From contig MNCI01001077.1 of assembly GCA_015680685.1 (NCBI GenBank), forward strand, positions 762,268 to 826,267: a DNA stretch of 64,000 nt. The letters run 5' to 3'. The notes beneath the pieces were generated by a model. The model saw only the letters and a program-made list of their open reading frames with translations, had not been told where the DNA came from and made no database searches. Of the stretch, positions 3,424 to 37,878 are shown in pieces. Position numbers and translations under genes: made by a program. Every line of letters begins with the position of its first letter. Position 1 is the stretch's first letter. This DNA comes from Gnetum montanum (taxonomy: Eukaryota; Plantae; Gnetophyta).

Positions 3424-3446
3424 ACAAGATAATTAAATAGACTTAC

Positions 3447-6400
3447 GAACTATGGGTTGCACCTTACAAACTTTGATTCACAAATTTCTCCTATTTTCCT
3501 CATTAGTGCAGGGAGGTTCTTCTGCTAGGTGAGATGTTTTGTGTTGCAACCTAGTTTTCACCATTTCTACAATGAGGCATACCCCCCTTAGCATATTGCC
3601 TCTATTAATGCAAGGTCCCTCTCCAACCCTATCTCTCATTGTTATTAAAAGACATTCCCCGATAGCTTTCAGGGGGTCTTTGGATTGGGTGGTGCAGAAA
3701 ACTTGAAAAATCCATGGCTTAGATATCTCAGTGCGATCTTGCTACACCTAGGCGCTATTCTCATGGACCATCAAGAATTCCACAAACCATCATAGGCAAG
3801 CTATGAAGAAGGAAAAGTGCATATTAAAATAGGCTTCAAGCTTCTTACGAAGCTTAACTATTTCATTCCGCAAGCCTTCAGAAAGGTACTTTATCTAGTT
3901 GTAGTGGATTCCTCCTTCCATAGCATCCCTCATGATCCAAGCTTACTCTACTCCAAGAATTTTCCTTTGGAAGAGCAGCTTGGGGAAGGCACGAGCCTGG
4001 AAGATAGGGTAAACCTTTTGGGTCACTCCTAGCCTAACCTTATGCATATAAATTCCCTTTCGGTCCTTGCTCATCCCTAGCCATTCCTCTATGTCCCTCT
4101 AGTGGTTAACATCCTTGTTGTTCTTATCTCCTATCAGTAGACCATCAAAGGGAACACCAAATTGATCTACAAAACATTTTTCATTAATCTCAAATACCAC
4201 CTACACATTTTCAATCCATGTGTGGAAGCAATTAGCCTTTTTGGAAAAGGAATCAACTAGGGAGAGCATTTCTATAGCTTGGACACTTGGATTTACTGCT
4301 AGGAATAAATCCATGAGCCTAGCCTCCTAAACATTATTAACAAGGGTGGCTAGGGCCCCATTGCATAGCCAAAGTTATGTCTCATCCACCTCCTTGTACT
4401 TCAAGAAGAGGTTAGTTTCATCATGCCTAGAGGTAATTACTGTAACCTCTTGGGATTTTCTTGCTACTGCAACAACTAACGACATAATTAACAAAAGAAA
4501 AATCAATCACTTGAACACATGAAAGAAAAATGCATAATTTAACACATCAGGTATAAATGGCATAGGAAATGATGGAATTTCCACTAGAACATCTTCTACG
4601 GTAGGAGCCCGGTGGGATGCCCATTCGTTATCCAACCAACCAAGTTCTTCACACTTCACATAGAACTTGAAGTACTTTGTTGGGTAGGTTTTGAAATTAG
4701 TCCCAAATTGTTCTATGACACCGACACACACGTTCTCAATAGAAGAGAACTCTTGCAAGGTTGTTTGGGTCAACGCCAATGTCCCCTCATTACCATGAAG
4801 ACCATCCTTATCAATCACAAACCTGGTAACATGCAAAGTACGATAAGCATTTTTTGACTAATGCAAGACAAACAATACAACATGCTTGAAACATCTTCAC
4901 AGGACTCACCTGCCGGCATAATACATGGTTCTAGGTGGATTCTGAAAACAGGTGTCCATGTGATGGGCAACGAACAATGTGTTGTATTGATGATAGCATT
5001 TGAATTAGGGCATGTCCCAAATCCAACACAAGCATTGCAAGCCTCTTGGGTGCCATTTTAAGCCTTCTACCACTTCTCTCTCAATTGACCCATTAGCCAT
5101 GAACTTCAAAATGCCCTGGTTCACCCCAAGTAATAACATTTCAATAAGTACAATAGTTGTTTCAGTCGATAAGTGTGACCACACTATCACACTGAAGTGG
5201 TGAAAGAGGAACTCTAGGAATTCCTATGCACCTTTTCAAAACCAGATAGCTTGATGACCTACCCATGCATGGGGAGGGGGGACGTTGCCCACGGGTTCAC
5301 TCAAGTAGCATAAGACTCGCACTAGCTCAAGAACGATTTGGATGGGCTTTAACATGACCTTGTGCAACACAACAAAAAAGTGTTAATACATTGTTCAAGT
5401 GATGATTACTGAGTAGTGTAGCATAACCCTTAGTTTACAAATTTTCCATTACGCATAAAATAGTAAGTCCCCAGCATGGTAAAATAGAACCACACATCAC
5501 ATGCAGCATAGTAGGGTGTTACATGTAGCATAGCGCAGCAGGTACACCCTACACAGTGTAACGGGTACATCCCACATAGCATATCGTAGTAAGGACTCCT
5601 TACATGACATACCATAGCAGGCACACCCAATAAAACGTAGTGCAATAGGTACACCCTGCACAACATAGTGGGTATGCCCTGCATAGTAGAGCATAGCAGG
5701 CACACCCAGTACAGTGTAGCATAGCAGTTACACTGTGCAAAGGATTGATGATTGCATTATGCATAGCATAGCAAGACAACCACACCCCATGTAGCGTAAC
5801 AATGTGACAAGTGCGATAGGTACAATAATATAGCAAGCATGACAACATAGTAGAGATAACACTATAAACAGTGTAGCAAAGTAGTGGTGTTAACAACATA
5901 GCAGCGTAACATGCCTACTAGCGTAACAGTGTAGCAAGCCTACCAATATAGCAACATAATAGTGTAATGGCATAGCATAGCGACCACCAAAAACATAATA
6001 ATTTGACAGTCATGCTAACAAAAACAAAAATACATACGGCCTTGCCATTGCCCCAGCCTTGCCCCACTACATGAAATGTAGCAAAATGAAATGCAAGCAA
6101 AAAGAAAGCTCCCCCCTACACATGCTACACTATGCTGGACATACATTACACTACCTAGAAACTTTGCAAGCAAAAACACCCTCTATGGGTCCTATGCTAT
6201 GTTGAATGTGCATTACTGACCAAACCCTCGCAATGGAAACAGTTGTAGTGTAATAATAGAAATGATTTTAGTAACCAAGACATAGGAACAAAAATAACAA
6301 TATAGCTTAATATGTTACATAATGAAAATGAGGGTAGCGTAGCGACTTAATAGGAAGATGGGGCCTCCTGCTAGTCCTCAATGTGCACCTTAGGAAGGTG

Positions 6401-6520
6401 TCATAGGGTGCACTCACCTTCAGCTAGATTGGCCAATCCCTGATGTCTACATTTACTCTTGCATGCCATTGTCCTACTCACAAATTGACTATATCAACTG
6501 CTACATTGTCTCTTAGCTCA
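3447..6520 (-). pseudogene. Antisense multi-exon accessory gene of element B (exon1 ends 6418; exon2 5358-4910; exon3 4822-~4548; exon4 4466-3447); FCP1/NIF-like pseudophosphatase plus accessory domain
   Basis: Translation IVLELVRVL...WF*KGA*EFLEFLFHHFSVIVWSHLS...YNTLFVAHHMDTCFQNPPRT aligns with the C gene; GTGAGT/GTAAGT donors at 6417, 4909, 3446; TATAAATA (minus) near 6590; exon1 start uncertain. Confidence 0.8.
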
Positions 6521-6789
6521 ACCGAGCTATGCTCTGAGTGTTAGATCTAACAGTGAAAGTGACAAGATTACCATGGGGTAATCCCCTATTTATATCCTAC
6601 CCAGTTAAAAGACATGTCACTTTTAGGGTGTTCTACACCCCACGCATAACATGGGACATCCTCTATAGCATAGCAAAAGTCCATTGTAGCATAGCATGGG
6701 TCTACTGCAGTGTAACATGCAGTTCCAACATAGCACATAGACACACTAACATTTTCACTTCATTCCCTTACAATGCGACACTGTTACGG

Positions 6790-7155: not shown

Positions 7156-7267
7156 ATTATGTGGCATCGCATGATTACCTTGGATACATTTCATTGCATC
7201 TTACTCTATTAAACAAGTACCACTTAACATTTTTTTGTTTTGCTAGTTTTGTAGGAGTGCTTCAAAA

Positions 7268-10200
7268 ATGGCTATGCAGGGTGATATCCACTTTCCCCTT
7301 ATCCTAACAGGACCTCATGGCAAGCTTACAAGACACTTAAGCTTAAAATAAATAGACTTGGAATCATCTACTCATGACACTGACATAGAATCCTTGGAAA
7401 CATCTCTGGACTGGCCCAAACATCTAGTCTAGGCCTTAGACCTAGAGGCTAGAAATGTAACCAACAATCCCTTATTAAAATCCCTATGATTACGTCTAGA
7501 GGTGATGCAAAACCATTAAACGTCAGTTCCCTAGTAGAGCCACATGTGTAATAGAACATTTTGAAAGTCCTCAATGACAATGTTAAAGTGTTTGTGTGAT
7601 CATATAAAGACATGCTAAGCCTAGACCTATGACTCATACAACACAATATTATCTTAGATCCACGTGTCAAGGTAGTTAAACAAAAAGCTCACAAAGTTAA
7701 GCCAAAGACTGCCTTAGCTGTACGTGATGAAATTATCAAGCTTTATCAAGCTAGTTTCATTTGGGTAGTCAATTACTTAGATTGTGTCTCAAATATTGTA
7801 GTCGTAAGCAAGAAGACTGAGATATATGGATTTGTATAGACTTCTAGGATTTAAATAGGGCAACAATTAAGGATGATTTTCCATTACCTAGTATTGATCA
7901 ACTTATCAATACTATGGCTAGTCATGCCTTATTGTCCTTCATGGATGGGCTTTCAGGTTATAATTAGATCTGTATAAACCTAGAGAATCAATTGGAAACT
8001 ACCTTTATGACCCCTTAGGAAATTTTTTATTACACAATGATGCCCTTTGGGTGCAAAACACTACAGCAATGTATCAATGAGTAATGACATAGATCTTTAG
8101 CTATTACCTCTTGGAAAGATTAAACGATTACATTGAAGACATAGTGGTTAAGTCTAAGGAAGCTACTAATCATCCCAATGATCTAAACATAGTCCTTCAA
8201 CATTGTCATAGGCATGACCTATGCCTCAACCCCAAAAATGTGTTTTTGAAGTTAAAACCAGGCACATGTTAGGCTTTGTAGTGTCAGAAATGGGGATACG
8301 AGTGGACCCCAATAAGGTTAGGGCCATTGTCAACCTAGAACCACCTACAAATATTAAAGAGTTGTGCAAGTTGCAAGTTAGAGTGCAGTTCATAAGAAGG
8401 TTTATTACAAGGTTTACAGACAAACTACACCTGATGCAACACCTGCTTAAGAAGGGAGTCAACTTCTAGTGGATAGATCAATGTCAAAATATCTTTGATA
8501 ACCTAAAGAAAGAGCTTCTGCACCTTCTCACTATTTATCCTCCATAGAGGTATAAGCCTTTCTACATCTATCTTGCCACCTTAGACACATCTATTGTTGC
8601 GCTGCTATGTCAAAAAAGAGATGATGGGTCTAAAATCCTAGTGTACTACTTAAGTCATGCATTAATATCTCTGAAAGCAAAGTACAATGAGGTAGAGAGA
8701 AATTATCTTGCCCTAGTGTTTGCACTTAAAAAGTGGAGACATTACTTGTTTCTTAGTAAAGTCAATATTATATGCAAAAGCAACATACTTTGGGCTATTA
8801 CAACCAACTTGTAAGAGAGTAGTAGAATAGCCTGATGGAAAGCCATAACTACAAAGTTCGATTTACATTATGTGGCACAATCATCCACAAAGGGCCAAGA
8901 AATAGCCACATAGGTTATGACTTTACCTATTGATAACCAAGCAATAATAGAACCCAAGTTCCCAGATGAGCATGTCAATAGCATAAGTCCTATACCATCA
9001 GATTTCGATCAAATTTACATTTTGATGGTGCTTCAACTACATGAGGTGGTAGCACCACTACTGTTCTTACATTTCCCTCCGAGCAAATTTGATCCTTTGC
9101 ATATCATTTTACATTCCTTTGTACAAATAACATAGCTGAGTATGAAGGACTCCTTAGGGGCCTTCTAGCAGCTCAAGAGTTGAGGATCCAACACTTAGCA
9201 ATCTGGGGTGACTCCCAACTAGTTATCAACCAGATCACTGAAGTTTATGCTTGTAAGGCACCACATTTGCAACCTTATTATGACTTAGCCAAAAGTCTAC
9301 TAAATCAGTTTGCAACTTTAGACATCCAACATGTGCCTCATAACAAAAACATTGTAGCTGATGCACTATCCATGTTAGCCTTAAATGTGTTATCACACAT
9401 GTTTACTACCTTTCCTGCTTCGATAATAAAATGCACCGATCCTATTACTCAAGTGGCACACATCACATCTATAAGTACAATGCATACTCAAGAATGGTAT
9501 GACAACATTAAGGCATACCTCCAACATGGTGAACCCCCACACAGCTTGACGTCCACTCAAAAGGATGCAATATGAAAATGAGCCCACCAATCTTTCCCCG
9601 TAGGAGACAAAACTTTATGAAAATGCTCTTATGATGGAATATTTCTAGCTTGCATTAGTAGGGAAGGATCACAAAAGATTGTTGATGAAGTCCATGAGGG
9701 ATTATGTGGGGAACACATAGCCCCCAGGGCTATGGTAGTAAAAATCAAATGCTTAGGTTACTACTAGCCTTGCATGGAATGTGATTGTGTTGCCAAGGTT
9801 AGGACATCTGATGTGTGTCAATGCCATGGGAAATTTATAAATGTATCACCTACTGAATTGCATACAACACAAATTACATGGCCTTTCCAATGCTAGGGAC
9901 TAGATATCATAGGTCCCATTAGACGTAAGTCTTCTGCAGGGCATAGTTTCATTATTACTACAACTGAATACTTTACAAAGTGGGTAGAAGCCATTTCCAT
10001 TAGAAAGACTACATCTCAGTAGGTTTGCCACTTCATTTTGGATCACATAGTAACATGGTTTGGCCTTCCCATGACCATTATTACTAACAACAGGCCATAA
10101 TTTAGTAGTGCATAAACCAAAACCTTTTACGAGAACCTTGGCATCAAACACTCTTTTTCATTGCCATACTACCCACATGTGAACGGTCAAGCAAAGGCAA

Positions 10201-10735
10201 CCAATAAGATCATCATCAACCTTATGAAAAAGATGCTTAGCAACAGCAAGAGGCAATTGCATGAGCAAATCCTCTATGTGTTATGGGCTTACCATACAAC
10301 ATGCAGAATAGCAACAAGTAAGATTCTAGATAGTCTTGTTTATGGATCTAAAGCGGTGTTACCTCTTGAATTTTAGGTTCCATCACTTTGAATGATCCTC
10401 TCAAACATCGTAGATGAGACTCAAAACAATGAGTCAAGGATCATTGATCCTGACTCCGTAGAGGAGGAGTGCATCCAAAACTTGATTGCATCAAATGGTA
10501 TCAAGATAAACAATAGTAAAAACATCACTACAACTTACATCAGTGATAGAATAAAAAGGGGGACCTAGTCCTCAAGGTCGTTCATGAACCAGTGAACAAA
10601 TTTTCAGCCAATTGGGAAGGCCCTTTCATAGTCATGAAAGCCTATGAAAATGGGGCATTCAATTTAGCTAATGTAAAGAGCAACGAGTTTGAAAATCCTA
10701 TCAACCACTTGTACTTGAAGTTGTACTACATTTAA
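7268..10735 (+). pseudogene. pol: pol of element B: RT - RNase H - additional RNase H (aRH) - integrase, degenerate
   Basis: DDFPLPSIDQL, MDGLSGYN, MPFG, YIEDIVVKS (RT); FYIYL (RH); FDGAS...EYEGLLRGL...GDSQLVINQ (aRH); HEGLCGEH, LDIIGP, VEA, YYPHVNGQAKA, WEGPF (INT); many stops and frameshifts. Confidence 0.93.
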
Positions 10736-12490: not shown

Positions 12491-14735
12491 TGAAATACCA
12501 TAAATTTTTGGACTCTCATGCCTCAACACAGTCCCAAAATTTAGACAAGGATCTCTGTAAGCGTGGTTTCACGTTAGACCATGTAGACAACATGGCACCC
12601 TAGATGTCCTAAAGCCAGAAAAGTTGATTTCAAGCCTACGTACCACTCTCTACAACATAGTCAACGTAGCACCCAGCCATGGGGCTATTTTGCATGAAAG
12701 AGGCACTAGGGGTAGACCATACAATCTGGAAAATTTTCTATCTCCTAGGTTGATAGGATTGCTACACCCTCTAGCTTGCCCAGCTTGACACTTGGCCCAG
12801 CTAATGGTCTACCCAGGGACCATATTAGGAGTTGCTAAAAGTTTTCAAGATGGACTAAATAGTTTGGTAAGTTTTATAACTACAAAACTTGCTATGCTAC
12901 GCTATACTACACAGCGTAGCAGGCCATATGGAGACTGAACAAGCACCAAAAATGTAGTTTGACAGTGATTCCACCCTCTAGGATACCTACTCCAATTTAT
13001 CCTTCAAGCATGATCAACATGATGAAAGAGAGTGTGGCAAAGTTTGTTAAAAATCATCTTCATTTGAGTGCTATGCTATGCTATGCTACACAACGTAGCA
13101 TAGCATAGCAGGGTGCTCCTATGGAAATGCTCCCGCTCAAACCATTTTAACAAAGTAAACATGATTGCCCATGCTTCAACAATCAAACATGCTTGCTTTA
13201 CTACCATGCCAGGACATGACTAACATCCCATGATAAAAATTTTGTAAGGTGAGTCAGAATTCAAGACAAACTAAGTGCTATGCTATGGTACACTACAGAG
13301 CGTATCAGGGTTAGAACGCATAAAGGTCCTTTGCCAAGTGGTTCCTAGTAAAGGGATCACACTTGGCCACATTCAAACCTCCAAGACTGGTTGTTCCACT
13401 TCACCCCCAGGTTCCAAGCAAAGTTTCTTCACAAGACATTGCAAATCAAGCAAGGATGCATGTCACACTGGCTACTATGCTATGATATGCTACATAGTGT
13501 AGCACAGTGTAGTAAGGACACAAAGCATGAAAGTGTCCCAAGGATGAACTCTGTAGGTCCTAGGACCTTTTAGCATGGAACGTAGGGTTGTCAATTGTAG
13601 ACGTTTCTTGTCTAGCCAAGCCTCAGACGGGTATCTTTGATCTTTAGGAAAGATTTCTTTTAGGGCTAGTGGCTACGCTATGCAATGTAGCATAGCGTAG
13701 TGTGCGGATGTTTACACTATGATGATATGCTAGGTAATGTAGGTAGCATAACACTCGCATGGAAGCCCTAGGACATCTTTAGCAGCTCCATAACTCATTG
13801 ACAATGGTCATTTCTACTCTTGTATCTTTTCAATAGATAAGATCAATAGTTTTTCTTTATTTTTCATCCCCTGTTAATTCCCAAAGTTGTCCCTACATTT
13901 GACACTACTTGCAACAACAAGAAAGACGTAGTCCTAGAGCACATCAACGTAACACTGTAGCATAGCACATCAACATAATGTTGCAGCGTAGCACTATACA
14001 ATAGTGTGGCACATTCACGTTCACACCATGTGGGACCTAGAACATGTGGCATCCAAATCACATTTCTCTTCCACCCTTGGCTCTATAAATACCCTAGCAA
14101 ACAACGTTCAAGGTGTTGGATTTGAAGATTGGCATTTGACATTTTGGATTTCTGCCGATTAGCTTTGGCAAAGAGGCTAGAAAGTAGAAGGTTGAAAAGT
14201 AGCAAACCCCAATAGCAGTACCTCCTGGATCTCTCCTAGCCTAGCAAGGACCAGCTCACTAGTTCCTGTTAGGAAGTTGTTGGCAACAATCAAGGACCTA
14301 TGACCATACTCTTTCATTATAAGCTATGCCTATCCACACTGCACATCTATTGTACATCTTCTTTAGCCAAACAAAGATTAAATCTTCCAATCTTGGGCTA
14401 GTGCATCCTCTCACTCAAGCTCACTTCATTTCATTTTAGAATAGTTTGCATCATTGTCTATCAATCTGCATTTATTGCTTAAGTTATGTACTTTTCTACA
14501 TTTTTACTATTCTATGTGCCATAGTTTCTCCATCTCAATCTCCATGCTCAAAATCTTAAAATAATTTTCTATGAAAGGTTATTATACACTGACTAAGTCC
14601 CTGTCTAATTGAACAAACCATTAAGGCCACCTCATTTCCATTTTTCTTTAGCATGGCCCTCACACAGATCCGAGGTTAGGTTGTATGCCTGGTAAACTCT
14701 CAGTGTTTCAGCCACCGATTTTTTTGGCCATTACA
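12491..14735 (+). repeat. 3' LTR of element B
   Basis: TGAAATACC...GCCATTACA; follows the PPT; TATAAATA at 14084-14091; U5 end resembles the other LTRs. Confidence 0.85.
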
Positions 14736-18298: not shown

Positions 18299-20431
18299 TG
18301 TACCGTCTAAAATCGTCGGTGTCAGGCTGGAATGTTACGAGCACCGAAAGATTCATAGACAAGCACAGCAGACCCTACCTCCACTTGAGGGTAAGCTAGA
18401 AATGGACAAAGTCAGACTGCCTTGGATGGTCCGCACGTGGATCAAACAAGGACTTCCCCAATGTTTGCCGCTACAACACGTTCGGTTATACATAAACTGC
18501 AACTAAATGTGAACTAATACGAAACCTACAGAAAATGTAAACGTGCGTAAACAGAGAAAACGATGTAAACTATAACAAAAGTTTGTGAAAGGTATCAAAT
18601 GTATTAAAAAAGAGTGTGTACAAAGCACCGGTCTGTACGTAGTTTTGGATCTACACAAGGTAGACGTATAGCCTCGGTTGATAAGGATGGGTGATGACAA
18701 CTACTTGGAATTTCGGTAGGCATAGCGTGAATGCTATATGCTTAGTGTGTAGGATGTATGCACAGCATGTGAGATCTATGCTTCTATGCTCTATGTGTAA
18801 AAATGACCAACTTTTTGACCCCCCCCCCCAAACCTCGATTTAGTTAAAAATTAAGGTTTTTATATGATCTTAGAGCATGGAATTCGGATCTGGAATGGGA
18901 TAATTGGCTATGGGAGGTAAAATTTATGAATCTGGTAATAGGTGGGGCATTGACCAGTGCAAAAGAATAAAATTTTACAAGTGTACAGTGTGAAAACTGT
19001 CCAGTTCACACGTTGGGCGTGCAGATCCTCAGCGTGTGAACTTTCATGCCCATAAAAAATGAATGAATGGTAGTTGTACAACAAATTTCATGGTTCTAGC
19101 CTGTAGATATGAGCTCTGGCATCCTTTTTCTAGCTTCAACGTGTCATTCTAAGCTCTAGGGTGTACTGGAATGTCCATAGAGCTTCCAACATGTGAGTTT
19201 GAATGTTCGGCGTGTTTCTATACCCTCATACGCTAGGCGTATATGCTCCATACGCTAGATAGCAGGTAGTCAAGAGGGAAATATTTTGACCTATATTTTG
19301 ATGTCCGAAGCTAGTTTTGATCATGGATATGGATGCTTGATGTCCTAAGGATTTTTTCTATCAAATTTGGGCTCATTTAACCTTGATTTGGTAGGGTTTT
19401 GGTAGGACTGAAGTTGAGCATGCGGGCCACACGTTGGGTGTATAGGCCAGCATGTGAGCATGAAAATTGCAATTTAGGAATCATATTTGGTACGTTGGGG
19501 TGTGTACATTGATCCCTGAGTCCTTTTGGTTCTCTAGGTCATCCAAGAGTTGATTTTGACTTCATTTCGATGGATTTTTGGGCTCATCTCCAAGGTGCAT
19601 GCTAGCTGTATGCTGGACATATACACTGGGTGTATAGGCCAGCATGTGAGGCCAAAAAGAATACTTTTGATGTCCAAAATAGATGTTTTTGAAGCCTTTG
19701 ATGATGTATACTAGATGCTCATGTCCTGAGGATCAACCCCATGCCAAAAACTTGCCTGAAAGTGCCTGTTTGACCTTGTCCTTGGTGCCAAATGTTAGGC
19801 GTACACGCTAGGCGTGCAGGATGTACATGCTCAGAGTGTGAACTTTCAAGTGCATGATTTCAAGACCAAAAATTGATTTTCTTAATCCCATGATGATGCC
19901 TAATAATTTTCCTATCTTTGAGAGTTGATGCCTTCTGAGAATATTTCTCTGAAATGCCTATTTTGGGTCACCTTTAAAGTCATACGCTGGGAGTACACGC
20001 TAGGTGTGTGAGCCAGTGTGTAGGTAGGAAATGACCCATTTGGTGTTCAAAATTTAATTTTTAGGAGCCTGAGACCTACTTGGGACCTTCGGTAAGGTCA
20101 TGGGGAGTCTATACCTTTGATTATGGCCTATTTTTATGAGTTTTTAAGGCTCAAAAGTTGCTGCACGATGGGCCATACGCTGGGCATGTATAGGCCAGCG
20201 TACATGATGCATACTTAGTGAAAACCAAGTATTTTGAGCTTAAAATTTGCTAGGTTTGATGCCAGATGTCACTGTAGTCTTCTTTAGGTCCTAGGAAACC
20301 ATTTCTTGCTTATTTTGACCCCATTTGAAGCTATCTGTGAGGTCCTCAAGCTTTAGTCATGCTGGGGAGCATCATGACTTAGCTCAATTCTTGTCGAAGA
20401 AGTGTTAAGCTTAGAATTTTGTGGTGTTTCA
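18299..20431 (-). repeat. 3' LTR of element C
   Basis: Aligns end to end with 37325-39431; TATA-like TATAAAAA (minus) near 18857-18864. Confidence 0.95.
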
Positions 20432-21995: not shown

Positions 21996-24900
21996 TCAAA
22001 CATAGAACGGTTTCAAGTACAAGTGGTTGGTCGGGTGTGCAAGCTTGTTCACTTCCATGCTAGCTAGCTTAAACGCTCCATTGTCATACGCTTTGGTGAC
22101 CAAGTAAGGCCCTTCCCAGTTGGCTGAGAATTTTTCCAGGTTTTCCCGAACTGCTTTGAGTACAAGGTCACCTTCCTTGATCAGGCACTTATGAATATTG
22201 TGTCGATGGCATCGTCATTGTTTCTTCTGGTACCATTCAATCTGATCGAGCACATGTGTGTGTTCCTCCTCCACCGAGTCTAAGTCAATAATGCGTAAGT
22301 CATTGTTTTGACCCTCATTGAGGAGTCTGGAAAGTGTGATCCTTAAAGATGGTACCTGCAACTCCAAAGGTAAAATAGCTTCTGAACCATAAATAAGACT
22401 ATATGGTGTTTTACCTGTGGAAGTCCGATGCGTAGTATGATAAGCGCATAATGCGTAAACTAGCTGCTCATGCCACCATCGTTTGCTCTGTGTAAGCATC
22501 CTTTTAAGCACTGTGATGATGATCTTATTTGTAGCTTTGGCTTGTCCATTACTCTGAGGGTAGTAAGGGGATGAAAATGAATGTTTGATCCCTAGGCTTT
22601 CATAGAAATTTCTAGTTTCTGCACTACTAAACTGTGGCCCATTATCAGTGATGATGGTCATAGGAATGCCAAAACGGGTCACAATGTTTTCTAGAATGAA
22701 GTTGCATATGTGTTTGGATGTGATCTTTCTAAGAGGAATAGCTTCTACCCATTTTGTGAAATACTCTATCATGGTTATGATAAAGCTATTTCCTATAGAA
22801 GATGGGGGAGTTATTGGTCCGATAATGTCTAACCCCCACTTCTGGAAAGGCCAGGTGATTTGCACAGTATGCAACTCATTCAGTGGAACATGTATAAAAT
22901 TGCTATGTTTTTGGTAGATGTTACACGTTTTGACCTTGGAGAAACAATCGTACCCCATGTGTGGCCAATAATAGCCCAAATGTCTTATTTTTGTTTCCAT
23001 TTCTTTGGGCACTATGTGCCCTCTGCATAGTCCTTCATGTACTTGCTCCACGATGGTTTGGCCATCAATGCTACTAATGCACATCAAGAGGATACCTTCG
23101 TAGGATCTACGACATAACATGTTACCTACTAATGCATACTGTCAAGAACATTTTTGTACTGCATCCTTTTGTGCATTCGTTAGATGTTACGGTGTTTCAC
23201 CGTGTAGAAGGTACTCTTTTATGTTATCATTACATTCTACTGCATGTGTTTTACTAACAGATGTAATCGGTAATTCATCAGGAGTATCAGTTATGGGTTT
23301 AGCACAACTAATTATAGAACTAGGCAACATGTGGAACATGTTTGGCAATATGTTTAGAGCTAACGTGGCAAGTGCATCTGCAATGGTGTTATCATTTTTG
23401 GATACATGTTTCACCTCCATGTTTTCGAATCGCCTCAGCAAGTGCTTAGTCAAATCATAGTATGGTTGTAAGTGTTGCACTTTGCACACGTAAACATCTA
23501 TGACTTGATTTAGAACTAACTGTGAGTCACCTCTGACTATGAGTCAGGTGATGTCTGAAGCTAGTGCTACCATGATACCTCTAAGGAGACCTTCGTACTT
23601 TGCTACATTGTTGGTACAGTGAAAGTCGAAATGATAAGCAAAGGGTCAGATCTCCCCAGAGGGATAGGTGATGACGACGGCAGCACTTTCCCATCGAGAT
23701 GTGGATGCTCCATCAAAGTTCAAAATGGCATCATAGTCATCAAGCACTATGTCTATTGCACTCACATTTTCATTAGGGAACTCTGGCTCTATCATTGCTT
23801 GATCATGCGTTGGTGATGCAATCATTTGATTTGCTATAGCTTGACACTTAACTGATGACTGTGCTGTGTAGTGTAGGTCAAACTTAGCTATCATGGCTTT
23901 CTAGCAAGCTATCTTACTTGATTCATAAATTTTTCCTACGATAGCTCTGAGCACATTATCCTTACAGATTATATTGACTTGGTTGGGGAAGAGGTAATGT
24001 CACCATTTCTTTAAGGAAAGGATAAGGGCTAAACATGACCTCTCCACCTCATTGTACTTTTTCTCATAGGCTACTAATTCATGGCTTAGATAATAAATAG
24101 GGACTTCAATTCCGTCATCTCATTTCTAGTAAAGCATTGATGCGATGGATGAATCTAAAGTGACCAGGTAGATATAGAATGGTTTGTTGTTCTGAGGTGG
24201 ATAGACCATTGATAGTTGAAAAAGTGTTGTTTTAATGTTATCAAATTCTTCCTAGCACTGTGAATTCCATTCAAAATGGACATTCTTGCATAGCAAGTGG
24301 TTCATAGGTTTCAACTTGTTCGTCAATTTTTCTATGAAACACCTGATGAACTATAATCTACCTTGTAGACCTCGGAGTTCAGTAACGTTGCTTGGGCGTT
24401 TCAAGTTGGTGATAGCCTTAACCTTGTCCAGATCTACTTGTATTCCTATTTCTGATACTACAAAGCCTAGCATCTTGCTAGTTTTTACCCCAAAGACACA
24501 ATTTTTTGGGTTGAGCCTAAGTTCATATTTTAGACAACGTTTTAAAACCAAATCTAAGTCTTGTATGTGCTGCTCTAGTGTTTTTGACTTAACTACGATG
24601 TCATCCACATAATCATTGAGCGAATGAAGTAAATAATCACTAAAAATGAATGTCATTGCTCTCTGATATGTGGCACTGGCATTCTTTAAGCCGAATGGCA
24701 TCATTGTATAGCAAAAATTACCTCACGGTGTCATGAAGGTCATCGTGAGTTGATGTTCTGAGTTGATTTGTGCCTAGTTATATCCTGAAAAGCCATTTAT
24801 AAAAGACAATAGAGTGTGCCCCATAGTTGAGTCAACAAGTTAATCAATGCTTGGTAGTGGGAAGTCATCCCTTATGGTTGCGATGTTGAGATCCCAGAAG

Positions 24901-25475
24901 TCTATGCATAAGTGAATGCTTCCGTTCTTCTTGGGGACTATAACCATGTTAGACACCCAATCAGGATAGTCAGTAGACTGAATGAAACCAACTTGATAAA
25001 GCCTAGTGATCTCATTTCAAACTGCCAGTGATACCTCAGGTTTGACCTTGCATGCTTTCTTTTTCACTGGTCTTAACTTGGGATCAAGTATAATGTTATG
25101 TTGAACAATGCGAGGATATAGTCCAGGCATGTCATTGTAAGACCAAGCGAATGCTTTCATGTTATCTTGAAGCACATGTTCTATGTCCTTAGCAAGTTGA
25201 GGTTGTAATAGTGTGCTCAATTTTAATACCTTAATGTCATCATCAGGCATAGTTATGGGGGTTTCCGTTAAAGGGTCTTTAGTGATGCTATCAGCTTCTA
25301 TGTCTAGAGATTTTGTCATACCTTCATAGCTGTCTAATGTTTGTTACATTGAGGCTACAAATATGTCACCTTTTGATGGACCTAAGTCGATAGAATTTAT
25401 GTTGATTTCTCTTGTGATCTTTCTGTATGTTCCATCGATGGTCAATGGTGTAAATAGATGCTTCCAATCTATCAT
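21996..25475 (-). pseudogene. pol: pol of element C: RT - RH - aRH - INT, degenerate
   Basis: MPFGLKNASATYQR, YVDDIVVKS, LNPKNCVFG; FDGAS, CTNNVAKYEGL, GDSQLV; HEGLCRGH, WGLDIIGP, TDNGPQF, QSNGQAKA, WEGPY; ATG at 25475 in frame with ORF 25017-25319. Confidence 0.95.
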
Positions 25476-25574
25476 GCTTGCTCCTGCCAATAAATAGGGA
25501 GGAAAATGAGCTAGGGGGTTGTTATGCTTTCCAGGAAATGTAAATCATGTGTACGTTTAACCGTGACTAAGGTA

Positions 25575-25770: not shown

Positions 25771-27155
25771 CTTACAATTCATGGTTAGAGTACATAGGTA
25801 TGTTTAGTGTACCTCATGGGGTCACATATACGTATATATGTATGTTGTTGGTTGTTTAGAATTCTAAGTACCAAGGGGTCATTAAAGGGGGTGTGAATAA
25901 TTGGTACATGTATGGTACATATGTACAGGGTTTTTTCTTATATTTTTTATGTTTTATGTTTCTTTTTGTTCATTTATGTTTATCAAAATAAGAATGGTAC
26001 TAGAGGCTAGGACATCATAGACCATAGGGACAGCATATGGGGTCTTTATTGTTATTTTTATATTTTATTTTTAAAGGGTCTTCACACCCTACAAAAGTGG
26101 GTCAACATGTACATGAATTTAGAACATGGATGCTGAGTGTTGGTCAAGATTTGTAAACATAGGACAAATCCCTAAATAGTAGGGATAGATCCTACAAAGG
26201 TGGGTCAACGCGTACATGAATTTGAAAAATGATAGTGTGGGTATAGATCAACGTTTATGGACAAAGGGGCAATGTCCTAGATAATTGGAAATGACTCCTA
26301 CTAAATAGGAACAGCATGCCCTAAACAAGAATCAATGTGCTAGATTGTAGGAAGGGTCTATGTGATCCTTACTTTGGCTAATTCTAACGTAATTTTGACT
26401 AGGATAAGAAGGTAAAAATAATAAATGTAAAATAGTTATGCATGAAAAATTAGTGGTTTACACTAAGTAAAACTGTAAATTCTTTGGGACATATAAAAGG
26501 CAAACTATAAAACTATGTAGAACTAAACCTTTCATCCTTATTCCAGCTTAAACCAGGCATTGATAGCGTAAAACCATCAAAATTGCATCATAGAAATATC
26601 AAAACTACAACATAAAATAAAGGGAGATAGAGGGCAGTGTGAACCCAAGGACTGTAGGTCAGCGTAAACCTAAGGACTAGATCCAAAGAGCAACGTACAC
26701 CCAGAATATTGAACTGAAAGAGCTAGCGTAAACCCAAAACCCCAGCATCAAGCCAAGGAGTAGAGGCCAAGACTTCAGCGTGAATCCTAGGTCAGGGTCA
26801 GCATGCATCAAAAGCTCCAACATGAATAGGTCCATGGCAGTGTAAACCACCATTTCCATAGCATTGGGCCATCTATTTTCTAGATCTATGACAATATAGA
26901 TCAGATCCAGAGCATGCGGCACCAGATCTACGATCTACAAGCCCTGATCTGCAATATTTTAGACCAGATCTACAGTGTGCGTGGGTGGATCTACATTGAT
27001 CTGGGTGTCAACATTTAGATCTGCTTGGAACCCTCAGATTTCGGCTACAACATGCAAGATTCGTCGATAACCAGAGTCGCCAACATTCGGGCAAGATGGG
27101 CAAGGGAAAACAAGTAAAGGGCAACGAGAAGAAGGAGGGATCCCTAACCTTCGCT

Positions 27156-30100
27156 ATGGAGAGTGATGAAACACTTCGAAACCTTTTCCAACCTATGATC
27201 CCTTCATGGCCTGGATCCCTGCACCAGTTAGCATCTGATCCGTATATCTAGATCTATTTTCTTTGCTGTTTTTATCAATTATTGTCCAGTTTTCTGCTAT
27301 TAGCGTATATGTTTTTCCTGGTAAATTTAGTCAACGTATGGGATCTTTGGCCAAGGTAGAGGTTGTGAAGCCAGTGTGCAGGCCATGATCCCAGTGTGTA
27401 AACTGTAAAAATGTTAAGTTCATATAGCGTATATGTACTTTTTTTGGTAAATTTTTGCTTAAGTTTTGGTGTCAGCGTGAAAGGTTTGGCTGGTATGCTC
27501 AGCGTGAACCTAACATGCCTAGCGTATAGAGGGCTATACGCCCAGCATGTGGTCTTCACATGCCCAGTGTGTGAGAAGGTCACATGCTCAAAGTATAGCC
27601 AAAAACCCTAAAAAAATTCTAAGTGTGAGAAGGTCACACGCTCAGCGTGTGGACCAAAAACCCAAAAATTTTCCAAGTGTTGCCACAGTGTAAACCTTGA
27701 ATTTTTTGAAATTTTTCATATATTTCCTAGGTGTTAAACTAATGTCCAAAACTGAAATTTTCTAAGTGTTATGTGTGTAATGAGAATGAACCCTTTGCTG
27801 AGTGTTGAATATGAATTGTAAGTGTTAAATAATGTAAACTAAAATGTCGTATGTATCCACTGGGGTATGCAAATAGAATGTTCTTGTTAACAAATGTTGG
27901 TAGTTTAAGGCCATATCGAGCCATTTTTTATGTGTATGATGTACTTACTTTGATCTTTGACTTCATGCAGGGGTCTTAAACCTTTTTTGTTGGTCTTGGA
28001 GCTTGTTGGAGTGTTAGCGTGGTTTGGGGCCATTGATCCAGATGTACCTGCACCTGATATGATGAGTGGTCGAGACGGGTGGTGGTTTAGACCAGGTGCT
28101 AATGAATTCCTTACCTTCATCTTACAAGGGTTCAGTGTGGTTATATGGTCTCATTTAAGTGAGTAACTCACCCGAAGTGTACTTGAGACCATACTGCCAG
28201 GATCAGCTAGTGGCATTTTAGCCTTTGTGACTGATATAGATGAGGGATTTTTTAATGTTGGAGATGGTCCCGTTGAAGGGCCTAGGTCCACTCGTCCATT
28301 GACACGTGTGTGGAACATATCCACATGTAGCCATTACAACGTTAATAGCACTTTGTTCCTTGTTTCCCATGCACACACCTTGTTCAAAAATCCTCCTGGA
28401 ACAGTTTACAGGGCGGCAAGATAAGGGTGTTCAATATATATTTATTTTTTTCGTAGTGCTATATATTTTCTCATGTTTGAACCTTATGTTTTTGTAGACC
28501 TCAGCTCAATGAAGAGGGAGTATATCAAAGTGATGATGAACTTGCACTTGCTCGTACAGCCTTGGAGGCTTTCATGGCAGGTCCCACTTTACGGGGTGCT
28601 GTGTTGGCTCAAACCAAGGGGGTGATCATCCATTACCACAAGCAATACTCAAAGGCCTTTGCACATTGTGAGGCTCAAGGATGGCTACATGCATATTGGT
28701 CTCAAAATGTGCTAGTTTTTCCACGCGATGTTGATCTAGCTCCAAGTTTATCTAATCCATCGGCCAACAATAAGTGATGATGTTTTTATGCCTTTCATTT
28801 GTTTTATTACCTCATCGATTGTTGTGAGATTAATTTCCTATTTTCTTGTATACACAGTGGATGTTACTCCTAGTGGAGTTACAATCGCCACAGGCCGTAC
28901 CGAGGGTACTTTGGCTATGAAGTTTGGAGAAATCAAAGGTGCACAACAATGGTTGAATGATGAGGCATCGCCACATGTCATTGGTTTCTTGCGTGATGTT
29001 GGACTTATGGATTTGTTTACCACTCTAAACCCTAACATCCCTGTGACCGAGATGGTTGCTATTGTTGATTCATTTAATGCAACTATTACTTATTATAGCA
29101 CTCATACTCACGGGATATAAGTAGTTTTCCATCTGATGATAGCATTCTTTTCAGACCTCTTTGGTGTGCCGGTAGATGGGACAAGAGTAACATTTGATAG
29201 GGCTCAGGAAGAAAGTCATGTTGTTTGAGACCTGGAGGAATGGTTGGGTGTTATGAAGGGCTCTAAAGGATTCCCTATGTAGGAAAGATCCAAAGTGGTG
29301 CAAGTGAATGAATTGTACCCTTTCTTCAGAGCACGGGTTTTTCCCAAGTCTCTATCACGAGTTAAGACTCTTGGCCTAGAGCCTGTACGTATCATGCACA
29401 CGATTCTAGAGACTGGGATGCGCTACAACTGGGCACAGTTCTTGCTTTCAAGTTTCCACAGGGAGATAGTGCGATTATGTACAAAAATAAAGGCAAAATC
29501 CTATTTCAATTTCGCATTTTTTGTTTGTTATCTATGCTGACTAGCTGAATTTCTAGTTTTTCATGTAGATAACGAGTACATGTTGAGGGATCGTGGCCAG
29601 TTGTCTTGCCCATGGATATGCCACTTGTTTGAAATTACGAGGTCTTAGGATGTTCCTGAAGGTGTAGATGAATCAACTTCCATTATGACAGCGGACACAC
29701 TTGGTTATTCCATCTATACGCATGACAGCATAGGGTTGGAGCCAAGTAGTGTACCCTACACTGCTAGGAGAGTTGATCGGGTTATCAAGGAGGCAATCGG
29801 GAAGGGTAAGTCTAAGATTGAGAGACCTAAGCGCCCTAATGAAAGTGCTCCAGCAGCTGAACCACCAATGCTAAAGCGTATCAGGTTTAAGCTTTCGGAA
29901 TGTTGTAAGCACATTTGAGTCATTTTTTTTTATTTTGTTTTGTTATTATTTATATTTCACTAGCGTTATACTATGTGTGTTATCAGAACCAACTCCCGAA
30001 GTGAGGGAAAAGCTAGCTCCGATTGTAGAAGAGGAAGAAGAAATCACCACCAATCAAGGTGAGGAGGAAGCGCAAGTAGAGGAGCATATGGAGGATCTCG

Positions 30101-31538
30101 TAGGAGATCAAGATGAAGAAGATGCCATGATGGGAGAATTTTTCGAAGGAAATGTAGATGACCAAGAGGTGTTCGGTATGTTTTTCTATTCTTTTCTATT
30201 AGGCTTGCTTTGTTCTTATGAATTTTTGTTTAGGAGTTTGATTTTTTTTCTCATTTTTTGTTGTTGCAAGATCCTAATGTTGAAGCAAGGGCAACCTCTA
30301 GTGTTCAAAGTAGGGTACCGATGATGACAATACCTACAGAAGAGTCAACCCATGTTGAGGAAGAGTCTACGGATGAGCCCATCAGTTGGATCAAAATGCC
30401 AAGTAAGAAAGACTTCATTATGGGCATTGTCAACAAGGTGATTCATCGCATCCAAATGGCTCATCCTGAACTAGGTATGTACATTTTAGCATGTTGATTT
30501 CATGTTCTACATCTATTTCTATTGTCCATGTTTAATATATATTACTCTTGTATTGATAGGTGATCAGCTAAGGTGGAAACCGTCTGAAGCAACCCACATT
30601 GATGCTTTTCCTCAACTCCCTTCAGAGATTGAGCAAGTACCAAGAAAGATCTACGATGAGGTGGTAGGATGTGTTGTACATAATGCCAAATCTCTTTGGT
30701 CTTGCAAATGCTCCATAGAATAGTTGTGGTTGAGAGTTCAGGCGGCCGAAAAGGAAATTGCAAAACTAGCGGTGGAAAGAAATGACTATAAGTCACGTTA
30801 TGACTTCACGACTACTAGATTGTCAAGAGATGGTACATGGCGAACTTCCAAAGTTACCTACACAAGATATTGGAATCTATTGAATCGTCAGGTAACTATG
30901 ACTCAGGAGTTAGGTGAGCGAAAAGCAGAAATTGACTTGCTCAATATCAAGTGTTAAGATTGGAAAGCTTTCGTTTTTAAAGTATGAAAATGGGATCAAG
31001 ATTAGAAGAACCACAAGCATCAATATAATTCGTTGTTAAAAGATGCATCTGTAGGACAGCATCGGATGGAAATTTTCATAGAGGGATTAGGCCTACGATC
31101 CTCTCTTGATACGTTTGTTAAACATACTGTTGTGGAGATGGAATCTCCTAAGAGATTGATCACAATAGCTTCATGGGAGGTTTCCATAGGTGAATTTCCT
31201 CTTAAGTGTCCTATGTGGACTACTGTGTACAATGGTAAGGTCATACCCGATGTTGACTTAGGCCTTGATGAAATGGATTGGTCTAGTATGCCAGAAGAAG
31301 AGATCCTACGTTGACTAGAGTTTGGCTTAAGAGCTTCCTCTTTCGTGAGTGTTCAATCTTGTAACATTTTTTTGTTCTTTTCTTCGAAATGTTATCCTTT
31401 GACTTGGTGACTGATTTTTTCCTATTATTGTTACAGGGTCATGGTGGCAATGATGGTGATGAAGGTGGCCCTAGTGGAGTGGGGCAAGATGATGCGAAGG
31501 AGCCTAACGATCAAGCTCATCCTAGATTTGATGCCTAG
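27156..31538 (+). pseudogene. Antisense 8-exon accessory gene of element C (exons 27156-27241, 27971-28420, 28498-28769, 28858-29904, 29987-30175, 30271-30474, 30560-31344, 31437-31538; 3135 nt = 1045 codons): FCP1/NIF-like pseudophosphatase + accessory domain + NLS-like + acidic + coiled coil
   Basis: Phase-compatible junctions, T-rich introns ending in AG, five GT donors and two decayed to AT; total length divisible by 3; in-frame stops mostly TAA/TAG/TGA as expected from CAA/CAG/CGA decay; homologs in B and E. Confidence 0.85.
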
Positions 31539-31969
31539 TTTTGATTTGATGTTTTTTTGTTAAAGTGATTATGTATACGAACTATGTATTGTGTGGAGAC
31601 ATTGTGCTAAGTTGTAATTTGACTTTGATACATTTATATAATTTTTCGGTTGATTTTTCTGTTATTCATTTTTTTTGTTTGAATTTTGAGTTTGTTTGAA
31701 CATTGATAAGCATAGACTTGAAGTGAAAATCTTTTTGTTCTTTTGGTTGTTTAAATGTAAACACGATGCAGTAGTGTAAAATGTGTTTGTTCATTTTGTT
31801 GTGTAAGTGTAATGCATGAAGTAAGGATACAAGTAGGAATGTAATTGTAATTGAAGCATAAGCATGTAAAAGGGGAATGTGAAGGAAAACTGTAACTAAT
31901 AACACAACAATGTAAGCATAAATTCAAATAGTGAACTTGAATTGAGAGAAAACATATATAAGAAAATGC

Positions 31970-32287: not shown

Positions 32288-35200
32288 TTAATTTAATGTT
32301 AGGAGTGGAATAGGTATCATTCTATACTCAGCGTCCCCTTCACTGATCACGTTGAATGGTAATTCAGCCCAAGGGACATCTAGTGGAACAGGCTCTATGT
32401 TGGTATCTTCTAGTGTTTCCGTATGTATAGTAGTTTCTATGTTTGCTGTAATTTATATGTTAGGTGGTGTATGTACAGTTTCAGGTTTGGGTGTTTCTAT
32501 GCTAGGTAAAGTTTCTTTTACGTTTGATGGATCACTGTTTACTGATTGCATGTACCTTTGTTTTTCCTTTGTGTTATCCTTTTGTTTTGGTTGTTTGGTA
32601 GTTGGTTTCAGTTTGTCAAGAATGTTGTCATCTTGTTTAAGCTCTTCAAACTTAACCTCCGAGCCTTGGTTTATATCTGTATGTAACGAGATGGTAGATG
32701 TAGCAGCATCCCCATGTATGATGATTTTAGCACCTTCATAAGGCAGGTGAATCTCTTGGTGTATTGGGGAAGAGACTACTTTCACTTGAGTCAGCTAGGA
32801 TCTTCCTAATATTAAATTGAACCCTGGCATCTCATCGATGACAACGAAGTTAGTTGATGTGGGGAATCGATCCATTGCTATAAATTCCAAAGTTATGGTG
32901 CCATTTACTACTAGGTGTGATCCACTAAATGATTTTAAACATGTGGTGGAGGTTGTTCTAATTAGTTCTGTAAGCCCTAATTGTTCAATGATGGGATAAG
33001 GTACTACGTTTGTGGTAACTCCATCATCTACATGCACTCTATGTATTTTGAATTGATTTACTTGTATCGTTATGAACATAGGTGCTATTGTTACTTCTCC
33101 TATTTTCTCATCAATTTTGATGTTGTCAGTGTGGAAGCCTAGTGATTTAGAAGTTGATCCTTGAGGCGAATACATTACCACATGAATAGAAGGTTCATTT
33201 GGAGGTAAGTCTTTGCTTACGGGGATTGATGTCAACATGCGTACTAGGGCTTCGCAATGAGTTTGATAAGTTAACATCAGGTCGTATAGGATTAATGAAG
33301 TATTTTTTTGTTTAAGTGCCTACGTAACCTGTGTTAGGGCTATTAATAAATCTTTACCATTAGGTGTATGCTTGTTAGTGGTTACCTGGTCCATCGGGCC
33401 CAACAGTTTTATCTCATGTGTAGCTGGTTTGACGTTTTCTTCTACAACCATTGATTTGGATGTATCATGTATTCCTAATGATTCTCCCTTATAGCTTGTG
33501 TTCGGTTCATTAGTAGGTGATTTCATGGGTACTGCACTTAATGGAGTAAGTTGTTGATGTTCCTTCTCCAAGCGTTCCCATGTGAGCCTGTTTGCTAGGC
33601 GTTCCCGCGTGCAGCGTGGGGGAACAGTTGATTTCTGAACATTGGGTTGCTTTGGAACCCGTATGACCTATGGAGTAGGATGGAGTTGCGGTTGGATGGT
33701 TGAAGGCGGTTGAGTGTCAGGCTACCTACGCACCCTGACAACATATGGGGTTGGCCTAGTAGACGGTTGAGGTGCAGAGGGTTGGTTATCAGGATGCTTA
33801 GGCACCCTAACAACATACGGGATTGGTCTATTTTGTGTTTGTAGAGTGGAAGATTAATGGTTATCAAGATGTTTGGGTATCCTAACAACATATGGAGTTG
33901 GTCTAGTTGGGGGTTATACCTTCGTAGTTGCAACCGCAGGTGTCACCCGGAGTACAAAGGGAGTGGGTCGAGTAGGTGGTTGTGTGTTTGTGGTAGTAGT
34001 AGTAGGAGGTACATGCACTACGTATGGTTTAGCTTGCGGTGGTATGGTAGAGGTTGCCACTGTAGGAGGTACTTGGATGACATAGGGTCTTTGCGGGGTA
34101 GGCGGGTTATATGGAGGGTATGATGATTGAGATGCAGGTGTTTGTGTAGTAGGAGCAGTACGAACTACAAAGGTTCTCCTAGGTGTTTGTTGTTCATTAT
34201 CTAAATAAATGGTGTTAATCCTAGGTGCTTCTTGTTTTCTATCTAAGTAGATAGTGTTAATTACGTATGGTGCTTCCTTAGTATTTAGTGGGTATTTATA
34301 TACACCCATGGATTGGTTTTGCGGTTCAACTGGGTTGGACTCATCAAAATTTATTTTTCCCCTATCTATCATTCATTGAATGTCTTATTTCAGGGTGAAA
34401 CAAAAATCAGTACCATGTCCATTACACTGATGGTACTCACAAAACCTATCTAGCCTGAAGCTTTTTGGGATAGGAGGCTTGTTAGGTGTATCCAAGCTTG
34501 GATTCTTGACCAATTCACAGAATCGATCATGTTTTTGAATGGCTGTTGGAGACATCTGCTTGTGTTTCATCATTCCAGCCTTCAAAACTTGGTCAAACAA
34601 TTGAGAAGGCTTCATAGGTAGTGGTGTGTATTGAGAGGAATCTTTCCTCTCAAAGTTTCGGGCATGACCTATTGTAGCAGTTTGTGATGTAGACGGTTTG
34701 GGTGCAGTAGTGGGAGCAAATCTAGCATAGTTAGTAGGGCCAATAGGCAGTTTGCCTTATTGTCCCATACTTGTTTGTTGTGTTTTTGCTATTGCTACTA
34801 CAGTTGCCTAAGCCTTTTCTTTATCTTTTTTGCTATGTTGGTTTTTAAAGGCTGAATGGCTGGGGTCATGACTATTTTGTGCAGCTTCTTCAATATTCTT
34901 TATTTGTACAAATTCTTGGATAAGAGTGTGTGCATTAAGATAGTATAATTCAGACTTTACAAAATCATTAATGGCCCCCTTTAGAATAGTGAGGAGATAA
35001 GTCTCCGGGATTGGCTCATGGAGCTCATTGAGGGCAGCACTCCACCGTTGGATAAATTTTTGAACAGGTTCAAGCAGTGCTTGCTTGACCTGTATGAGGC
35101 TATCAAGCGTTGCTTTAGGCTTCAAGTNAGAGTTTTGGGGCAAATCCCAATACCGGTAAAGTGCTCTCCCTATGAGAGACATGGGGAACACTCGCAAGAT

Positions 35201-37845: not shown

Positions 37846-37878
<33 letters not shown>

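Follow-up and report, generated by a model that had tools for sequence, protein, structure and literature searches.

ACGCT-core motif arrays in nested Tat retrotransposons of Gnetum montanum as candidate protein docking sites

The closest architectural precedent for the arrays described here is the set of RM boxes of Sireviruses (PMC2829016), and the VANDAL/VANC system is the mechanistic model. RM boxes lie upstream of the TATA box, are symmetric, contain CpG and differ from element to element; their binding factor is not identified in the available text of the source (PMC2829016). For the linker boxes, 77/79 copies lie upstream of the ENV-like gene, and four Sireviruses without the extra gene keep their LTR boxes (PMC2829016); Sirevirus palindromes are siRNA hotspots (PMC4728375). 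In VANDAL, tandem repeats in non-coding DNA carry arrays of motifs to which the VANC protein binds (PMC5735166). The structure of VANC is similar to that of MAIN (PMC13547354), and the PMD structurally resembles the DUF1985 domain of VANC (10.1101/2024.09.27.615353). Extra ORFs of Tat elements encode a PMD and a coiled coil (PMC4408406); Tat elements often contain tandem-repeat arrays, and the antisense proteins of Retand have been suggested to act as DNA-binding regulators, with no target motif named in the available text (PMC11963269).

We analyzed a 64,000-nucleotide stretch of contig MNCI01001077.1 of Gnetum montanum (the window). Its arrays share with RM boxes high-copy symmetric CpG motifs at discrete loci upstream of the LTR TATA box, extra copies 5' of an additional gene, and a common core with variable flanks (PMC2829016, PMC4728375). 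They differ in carrier (Ty1/copia in Sireviruses, Ty3/gypsy Tat here, with integrase last in the domain order), in core (CGG-CCG versus ACGCT) and in the extra gene (sense, ENV-like and after pol versus antisense, spliced and in the protease-RT interval). The leader array, helical phasing and 190-bp spacing found here are not reported for RM boxes in the available text of PMC2829016 and PMC4728375.

VANDAL resembles this locus in its short family-specific motifs, built up by tandem repetition in introns, intergenic and terminal non-coding DNA, in the lack of the motif from the coding probes tested, and in a fast-evolving accessory gene aboard (PMC5735166). However, VANDAL is a Mutator DNA transposon and the carrier here is an LTR retrotransposon; binding and demethylation were shown for VANDAL (PMC5735166), whereas binding in the present system is predicted. 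The quoted VANC21 and VANC6 motifs contain no CpG (PMC5735166), unlike the CpG-core motifs here. DUF1985, the VANC domain, has no sequence match here in Pfam or PDB, and our fold model (see below) is too poor for a structural comparison. We found arrays in non-coding DNA only and a motif that differs between relatives, though only at clade level, and by analogy the system appears to work like the DNA side of VANDAL/VANC, yet it is not a member.

Ogre/Retand elements (Tat lineages IV-VI) share with this locus a protease-gag fusion and an additional RNase H (aRH) between RH and integrase (PMC4408406, PMC6317226), a gag-protease apart from pol and a 5-bp TSD (PMC4408406, PMC6317226, PMC11963269), and a coiled-coil extra ORF, for which in their case a DNA-binding regulatory role was proposed (PMC4408406, PMC11963269). 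Their extra ORFs carry a PMD or TRP28 and are found 5' of gag in Ogre and, as antisense ORFs, 3' of pol in Retand. In contrast, the extra gene here is antisense, has several exons and a NIF-like domain and occupies the protease-RT interval, in which Ogre has an intron with a mean length of 274 bp. MAIN/MAIL PMD proteins with their M1M/M2M motifs are also transposon-related, have promoter motifs (one palindromic) and oppose silencing, but they are host genes, and the antisense protein here has no PMD match (10.1101/2024.09.27.615353, PMC5418596). A word-based search of titles and abstract starts, which missed most subscription journals, returned neither such arrays in Tat elements nor a NIF-like extra ORF; the extra-ORF domain table of PMC6317226 may contain a NIF entry.

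Elements of the window and their U3 arrays

A nest of old Ty3/gypsy LTR retrotransposons, elements A-F, fills the window. Element C is a complete copy on the minus strand, and A, B, D, E and F are partial relatives. The order in C is 5' LTR (39431-37325), PBS (37319), gag-protease, a 6-kb insert, RT-RH-aRH-integrase, PPT (20444) and 3' LTR (20431-18299), with the 5-bp TSD CCCTT on both sides. The two U3s of C differ at 205 of 1489 aligned columns.

18299..20431, minus strand: element C 3' LTR (TG...CA), 84% identical to 37325-39431; PPT 20444-20430; TATA-like box 18929-18919
37325..39431, minus strand: element C 5' LTR; U3 37945-39431 with the same 8 cassettes; TATA 37942; PBS 37319-37304
22081..25487, minus strand: C pol (RT-RH-aRH-integrase), broken; integrase Pfam rve E=1.8e-17; homologous to B pol
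32331..36450, minus strand: C gag-protease, broken, nearly motif-free; weak Asp_protease_2 match (E=0.016)
7252..10735, plus strand: B pol, with an extra RNase H at 9093-9575 ahead of integrase (Pfam RVT_3, E=7.8e-17)

At 37847-37887 the 5' LTR of C has a 40-bp poly-C run with N where the 3' LTR has 11 C and further sequence, a possible assembly gap. The aRH block of B has a homologous block in the pol of C and F, and an additional RNase H in pol is a mark of the Tat clade, to which these elements probably belong. Protease at the end of gag gave weak matches in C (E=0.016) and E (E=0.01), below the Pfam cut-off, and the pol domain order, with aRH between RH and integrase, was read off the sequence; in both features the elements match the Ogre/Retand layout. 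Elements C and F are kin (R/U5 79%, pol 58-70% in the best blocks), as are A, B and E (B and E are similar in the 3' UTR, and A and E have gag in common).

All 7 Tat-type LTRs in the window carry cassettes of a YACGCT-core motif upstream of the TATA box:

18930..20431, minus strand: C 3' LTR U3, 8 YACGCTRG cassettes centred at ~19009, 19222, 19456, 19617, 19804, 19997, 20185 and 20358
12491..14735, plus strand: B 3' LTR, GCTACGCTA-type inverted cassettes at ~12892, 13071, 13278, 13475, 13673 and 13958; TATA 14083
1663..3420, minus strand: LTR A, A/B/E-class cassettes at 2511-3186, found with the B-trained matrix; TATA 2309
56571..58270, minus strand: E 3' LTR, A/B/E-class cassettes at ~57440-57990; TATA 57312; PPT 58282
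47863..49665, minus strand: D 5' LTR, RACTACGCT-type cassettes at 48587-49580; TATA 48531; PBS-like 47856
51301..53150, plus strand: LTR F (start uncertain), TCACGCTG-type cassettes at ~51510, 51675, 51867 and 52070-52146; TATA 52606; PBS 53157

The window has 85 copies of plain ACGCT, whereas 100 shuffles gave a mean of 30 and at most 41. In a first pass, a deamination-tolerant 8-mer count against shuffles, the U3s of A, B, D and E had top 8-mers with 12-20 copies (shuffle maxima 4-7), and those of C and F were marginal under this crude count (7-8 vs 6-7). Matrices were trained on single U3s and 17 region sets were scanned at a threshold of 1 match per 4000 background positions. The matrix of the own clade, trained on that U3 or on that of a clade-mate, gave 13-27 matches/kb in each of the 7 U3s, as compared to a background of 0.3-0.7 per kb (23.9 kb coding plus 8.9 kb unrelated DNA). 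The preliminary description had placed motif clusters upstream of the TATA box in every Tat LTR, and clusters were indeed present at every position it gave. Since array matches overlap and are not independent, and since the internal test regions were chosen by that description's coordinates and by gene structure, the P values overstate the case; the contrast is nonetheless large.

The B-trained matrix matched the A U3 30 times (0.56 expected) and the E U3 22 times (0.48 expected); on element C it gave 0 and 2 matches in the U3s, 1 in the leader and 0 in the antisense 5' region. The C-trained matrix matched its training U3 22 times (0.75 expected) and the second C U3 20 times (0.74 expected), with 7 matches in the F U3 and 4 in the B U3. 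Coding DNA stayed at the background rate (14 matches vs 12 expected with the B matrix, 9 with the C matrix), in agreement with the earlier remark that no such clusters were noticed in coding exons. The motifs are clade-specific and fall into about three classes (A/B/E, D and C/F), because the C and F matrices cross-hit (7-9 matches) and D cross-hits A/B/E (4-12 matches; 4-10 in the A/B/E regions with the D matrix). These classes follow element kinship. Specificity, which had been claimed for each family, was recovered at the level of clades and not of families, and two words that had been quoted for the arrays, GACTACGCT and CACGCTGGGCGTA, have zero literal occurrences and were back-inferred.

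The core dinucleotide is CG, TG or CA in 123/137 sites and TA in 4 more. Among 22 aligned cores of the C LTR pair, 5 have CG against TG/CA and 2 have TG against CA, as deamination predicts, and the proposal that the variants are CpG-deamination products thus agrees with the paired LTRs. In some C cores the next C is also changed to T (ACGTTG), which is consistent with CHG deamination at this second C. Mere CpG survival was ruled out as the source of the enrichment, as the matrices accept deaminated cores. The A/B/E motif is itself a 5-bp periodic repeat. Downstream of TATA, in R/U5, 5-9 sites were found vs 2.2 expected, and one further cassette of C was located there by site scan and sequence:

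18715..18790, minus strand: extra C cassette downstream of TATA (R/U5)

Cassettes with sites in two orientations (n=32) read ACGCT...AGCGT in 23 cases, the reverse in 2 and mixed in 7, an orientation common across clades. In C the cassettes recur with a period of ~190 bp (best 191; p=0.0025 and 0.015 in two non-independent LTRs) and in B with a period of 208 bp (p=0.046); for A, D, E and F a ~190-bp period did not reach significance. The distances between neighbouring sites follow a 10.5-bp phase in C, D and F, both pooled (n=35, p=5e-5) and singly (p=0.007 in C and 1e-4 in D, each with n=13, and p=0.002 in F with n=9), where, owing to unit duplication, the distances are partly non-independent. 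This phasing was not significant in A, B and E, whose motif has the 5-bp internal repeat.

The U3 spacers are mutually weakly homologous in C (z up to 8.2), D (up to 6.6) and F (up to 12.2) and barely so in A, B and E, and this weak homology makes growth of the U3 by old tandem duplication likely. Spacer lengths are mostly 130-165 bp in B, C and F. Alignment of the A, B and E U3s recovers mostly the 35-61-bp cassettes, plus one 129-bp A-B block. An AA/TT periodicity in the 10-11-bp band occurs in the U3s of C (p=0.01) and F (p=0.03) and was not significant in those of A, B, D and E. At the end of the D U3 (49354-49595) a 133-bp tandem duplication (78% matches) leaves the multiplication of cassettes still recognisable.

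Echoes of the motif in leader and antisense-gene 5' region

Copies of the motif recur inside the elements at the following places:

36679..36990, no strand assigned: C leader array, 16 YAGCGTR copies in one orientation at steps of 20 bp (12 times), 21 bp (2 times) and 23 bp (once); 3 more copies to 37119
26564..26844, no strand assigned: 10 copies of the C motif, all in one orientation, clustered upstream of antisense exon 1
27301..27692, no strand assigned: C motif cluster in antisense intron 1, 13 copies in one orientation
5386..6780, minus strand: B antisense-gene 5' region with A/B/E-class motifs; TATA-like box at ~6590 read from sequence; exon 1 and intron 1 inferred
47541..47588, no strand assigned: weak echo in the D leader, where a 25-bp tandem duplication contains two copies of the motif

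The C matrix gave 9 matches in the C leader (0.43 expected) and 13 in the C antisense 5' region (0.7 expected), and the C internal regions have 0-2 matches of the A/B/E class. Conversely, the antisense 5' region of B has 27 matches to the B-U3 matrix (0.70 expected) and 0 to the C matrix. The echo reported earlier around antisense exon 1 and intron 1 was thus confirmed in both elements, with the motif of the other clade absent there (the B matrix gives 0 in C). For the leader the same proposal stood in C and was weak in D, where the D matrix gave 3 matches vs 0.28 expected, 2 of the 3 within the one 25-bp duplication; in the presumed leader of A no echo was found (0 matches in 461 bp). The 13-bp spacers of the C leader array are 34% alike vs 26% expected. 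Similarity between internal regions and LTRs spans 15-40 bp only, and we rejected LTR fragments as the source of the echoes on this ground. The internal arrays are single-orientation and read, in element sense, AGCGT in B and ACGCT in C; this opposite orientation argues for recognition of DNA and not of RNA.

Two other repeats lie near these regions. After LTR A (1455-1662) there is no clear PBS, and two unit copies ~155 bp apart carry a palindromic ACRCTAGYGT-like word that is nearer to the C class than to A's own motif. The D leader at 47399-47493 and the C leader at 36610-36660 have in common a short AAAAATGGCTAAGT-type repeat beside the motif copies.

The antisense gene, its protein and its transcripts

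The 6-kb insert of C holds a multi-exon antisense gene in the protease-RT interval, and remnants in B and E fit the same place:

27091..31664, plus strand: C antisense multi-exon gene, broken by stops, between gag-protease and RT; delimited by translations, Pfam and RNA of relatives
27972-28409, 28496-28774 and 28857-29540, plus strand: NIF-like exon, a further exon and central domain of C; exon 1 is short
30562 and ~31437 onwards, plus strand: 3' part in C, with an acidic region, a likely coiled coil from 30562 (read from sequence) and the last exon from ~31437
3427..5385, minus strand: B antisense gene, NIF-like exon and central domain by similarity to the C exons, cut off beside LTR A
59640..60760, plus strand: E antisense gene, 3' exons only; 28% identity to C over 289 aa (C-terminal block)

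An antisense gene with a NIF-like domain between protease and RT is not described in the available literature on Tat extra ORFs. The B and C exons match in three blocks at 40%, 26% and 34% identity, and the antisense protein diverges faster than pol (26-40% vs ~55-60% identity in the best pol blocks). The NIF-like block approaches the Pfam PF03031 cut-off in C (E=3.4e-4, 20.8 bits vs 21.8) and is weaker in B (E=0.16); a B+C profile against PDB found UBLCP1 (3shq_A, E=0.034 over ~100 positions). The catalytic motif of NIF/FCP1-like (HAD) phosphatases is DxDx(T/V). At the inferred catalytic position C has LELVGV and B has LELVRV, and the catalytic aspartates are absent. A database search among longer proteins found no homologue of the NIF-like domain.

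The central 228-aa domain had zero relatives in Pfam, PDB and two word-based database searches, and HMMER, run in full against 1.84 billion representatives, gave 0 matches at E<=0.001. We take a resemblance to PMD/Transposase_32-type domains as a lead only. No DNA-binding, PMD, DUF1985 or TRP28 (Transposase_28) domain was detected in the antisense protein (Pfam; PDB), and a fold model of the central domain, predicted from an alignment of two sequences, was too poor for use (pLDDT 30.4, pTM 0.18). A language-model look-up of the 93-aa antisense exon returned only bacterial and phage leads scoring <0.9, and scans of metagenome and viral contigs gave no related locus. Two broken ORFs that belong to another type of element and are related to each other lie at 14900-16656 (minus strand) and ~50600-51000 (plus strand); they are 33.6% identical over 143 aa and have no Pfam match. 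Profile comparison gave no similarity between the C central domain and the ORF at 15985-16380 (probability 0.1%).

RNA reads came from 6 runs of 2 studies and are mostly <95% alike, and so derive from relatives of C. These relatives produce spliced antisense-strand transcripts, with poly(A) near 31664 in one run; the gene's promoter is therefore active in some copies. RNA joints place the splice donor at the GT after 27226, which confirms 27301-27692 as intron 1. The main joint connects exon 1 directly with the last exon, leaving out the NIF-like and central exons (81, 49, 30 and 14 reads; 4/4 runs); it also appears in runs X14 and X15 (7 and 19 reads). A joint into 28858 has just 4 and 3 reads, an exon 1 to exon 2 joint was not among the 11 joints listed, and no full-length antisense message was seen in reads of the relatives. 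Joints 27226 to 31277 and 27226 to 31438 mark short polyadenylated antisense transcripts of the relatives that skip most coding exons. These reflect either alternative splicing or internally deleted source copies.

Acceptor-like pyrimidine-rich AG sites precede the RT frame at ~7251 (plus strand) in B and ~25488 (minus strand) in C. The sequence suggests that the whole antisense gene may lie inside an Ogre-like intron of ~6 kb; no gag-protease-to-RT joint occurs among the 15 of 189 joints shown. DNA contigs of run X1 join 25632-25722 to 27898-32073, both at TAAACTAG-type repeats, and may represent copies without the antisense gene or mis-placed repeat matches. A second motif, TAAACT(A/G), is common to B, C, D, E and F (30 pattern matches in the window) and clusters after gag-protease, before RT and after integrase in element-sense orientation. 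Unlike the ACGCT motif it is not clade-specific, and it may have a role in RNA.

6801-7144, 10854-11006, 21766-21903, 25619-25736, 27909, 32055-32177, 43158-43385, 55552, 59267-59413 and 61047: TAAACT(A/G) sites

Candidate binders of the arrays

Confinement to non-coding DNA, occurrence in both orientations, helical phasing, a motif kept although its spacers have decayed, and its concerted switch at places without homology jointly suggest that the arrays probably act as docking sites for a protein on duplex DNA, whether that protein is the element's or the host's. In favour of the arrays being instead a neutral, unbound residue of tandem duplication or slippage in non-coding DNA are the weak homology of U3 spacers in C, D and F, the leader array with its old tandem repeat of 20-bp units (spacer identity 0.34 vs 0.26 expected), the 5-bp periodicity of the A/B/E motif and the general frequency of tandem-repeat arrays in Tat elements (PMC11963269). 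Such a residue leaves unexplained, however, why the motif is the sole survivor across A, B and E, why the same word occurs in size-unrelated units at three non-homologous places and why cassette orientation is common to the clades, and we disfavour it as quite improbable. A structural role, either as RNA hairpins that enter small-RNA pathways or as marks on the linkers of an array that positions nucleosomes, would fit the inverted U3 cassettes, which recall the Sirevirus palindromes that are siRNA hotspots (PMC4728375), the 130-165-bp spacers of B, C and F and the AA/TT periodicity of the C (p=0.01) and F (p=0.03) U3s. But no such hairpin can form in the single-orientation leader and intron arrays, A, B, D and E show no significant periodicity, and neither model needs a clade-specific word, so this role too is improbable, if slightly less so.

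The arrays could be enhancer boxes for a host transcription factor, with flanks tuned per clade and copied to both promoters by local tandem duplication, which we regard as possible although somewhat doubtful. All DNA-side results fit these boxes equally, the core is common across clades, and E and F retain arrays with part or all of the antisense gene missing. U3 repeat arrays have been described as host-factor recognition sites, and subfamily variation has been proposed to change regulation (PMC2829016, PMC4728375). Set against host boxes is the combination of 20-30 sites per U3 with a motif replaced in step in leader and intron, as has been reported for VANC targets (PMC5735166). The likeness of the cassettes to the NAC core CGT[GA] is only partial, which also counts against host boxes. 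That the docking protein is the element's own, antisense-encoded one is the reading that we tentatively prefer, at a little less than even confidence. In its favour, the echo switches with the U3 motif, an array surrounds the gene's own exon 1, and the antisense protein diverges fast, with precedents in VANC and the PMD. Against it count the ACGCT core common to all clades although the proteins are ~30% identical, the echo missing from the A leader and weak in D, the non-significant 190-bp period in A, D, E and F and phasing in A, B and E, and the Sireviruses that keep LTR boxes without an extra gene (PMC2829016); the lack of a detected DNA-binding domain and the exon-skipping RNA likewise speak for a host factor. 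Covariation of motif and protein is based on two near-complete proteins (B and C) and one fragment (E) in a single window.

Under self-recognition by the antisense-encoded protein, tandem duplication of units of ~190 bp (U3) or 20 bp (leader) would have multiplied the sites, with selection retaining the motif as the spacers between sites decayed. On one face of the helix, sites 10-11 or ~20 bp apart would be bound by an oligomeric protein, probably in linkers between nucleosome-sized spacers; this protein would keep both promoters active, its own included, giving a positive feedback. Perhaps, more speculatively, the NIF-like domain without catalytic aspartates is a phospho-protein docking module and not an enzyme. 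The self-recognition loop put forward in the preliminary description fits the DNA side, where phasing and the switching of echoes with the U3 motif agree with docking sites at both promoters, but its protein side is unsupported, the central 228-aa domain being without a Pfam, PDB or database relative. The loop is plausible as a reasonable, testable hypothesis and is not a result.

In its fullest form, a Tat lineage would possess its own sequence-specific transactivator or anti-silencer, encoded by a spliced antisense gene that fuses a captured, catalytically dead CTD-phosphatase-like domain with a DNA-binding domain and a coiled coil and that co-evolves with phased, nucleosome-spaced cassettes in U3, leader, own promoter and intron. 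Such a retrotransposon counterpart of VANC is, on present evidence, unlikely though conceivable. In the available text of PMC4408406 and PMC11963269, the extra ORFs of Tat/Ogre/Retand elements are stated to have no known function. With a divergent protein matched to a clade-specific array, a swap experiment can test whether an LTR retrotransposon recognises its own DNA.
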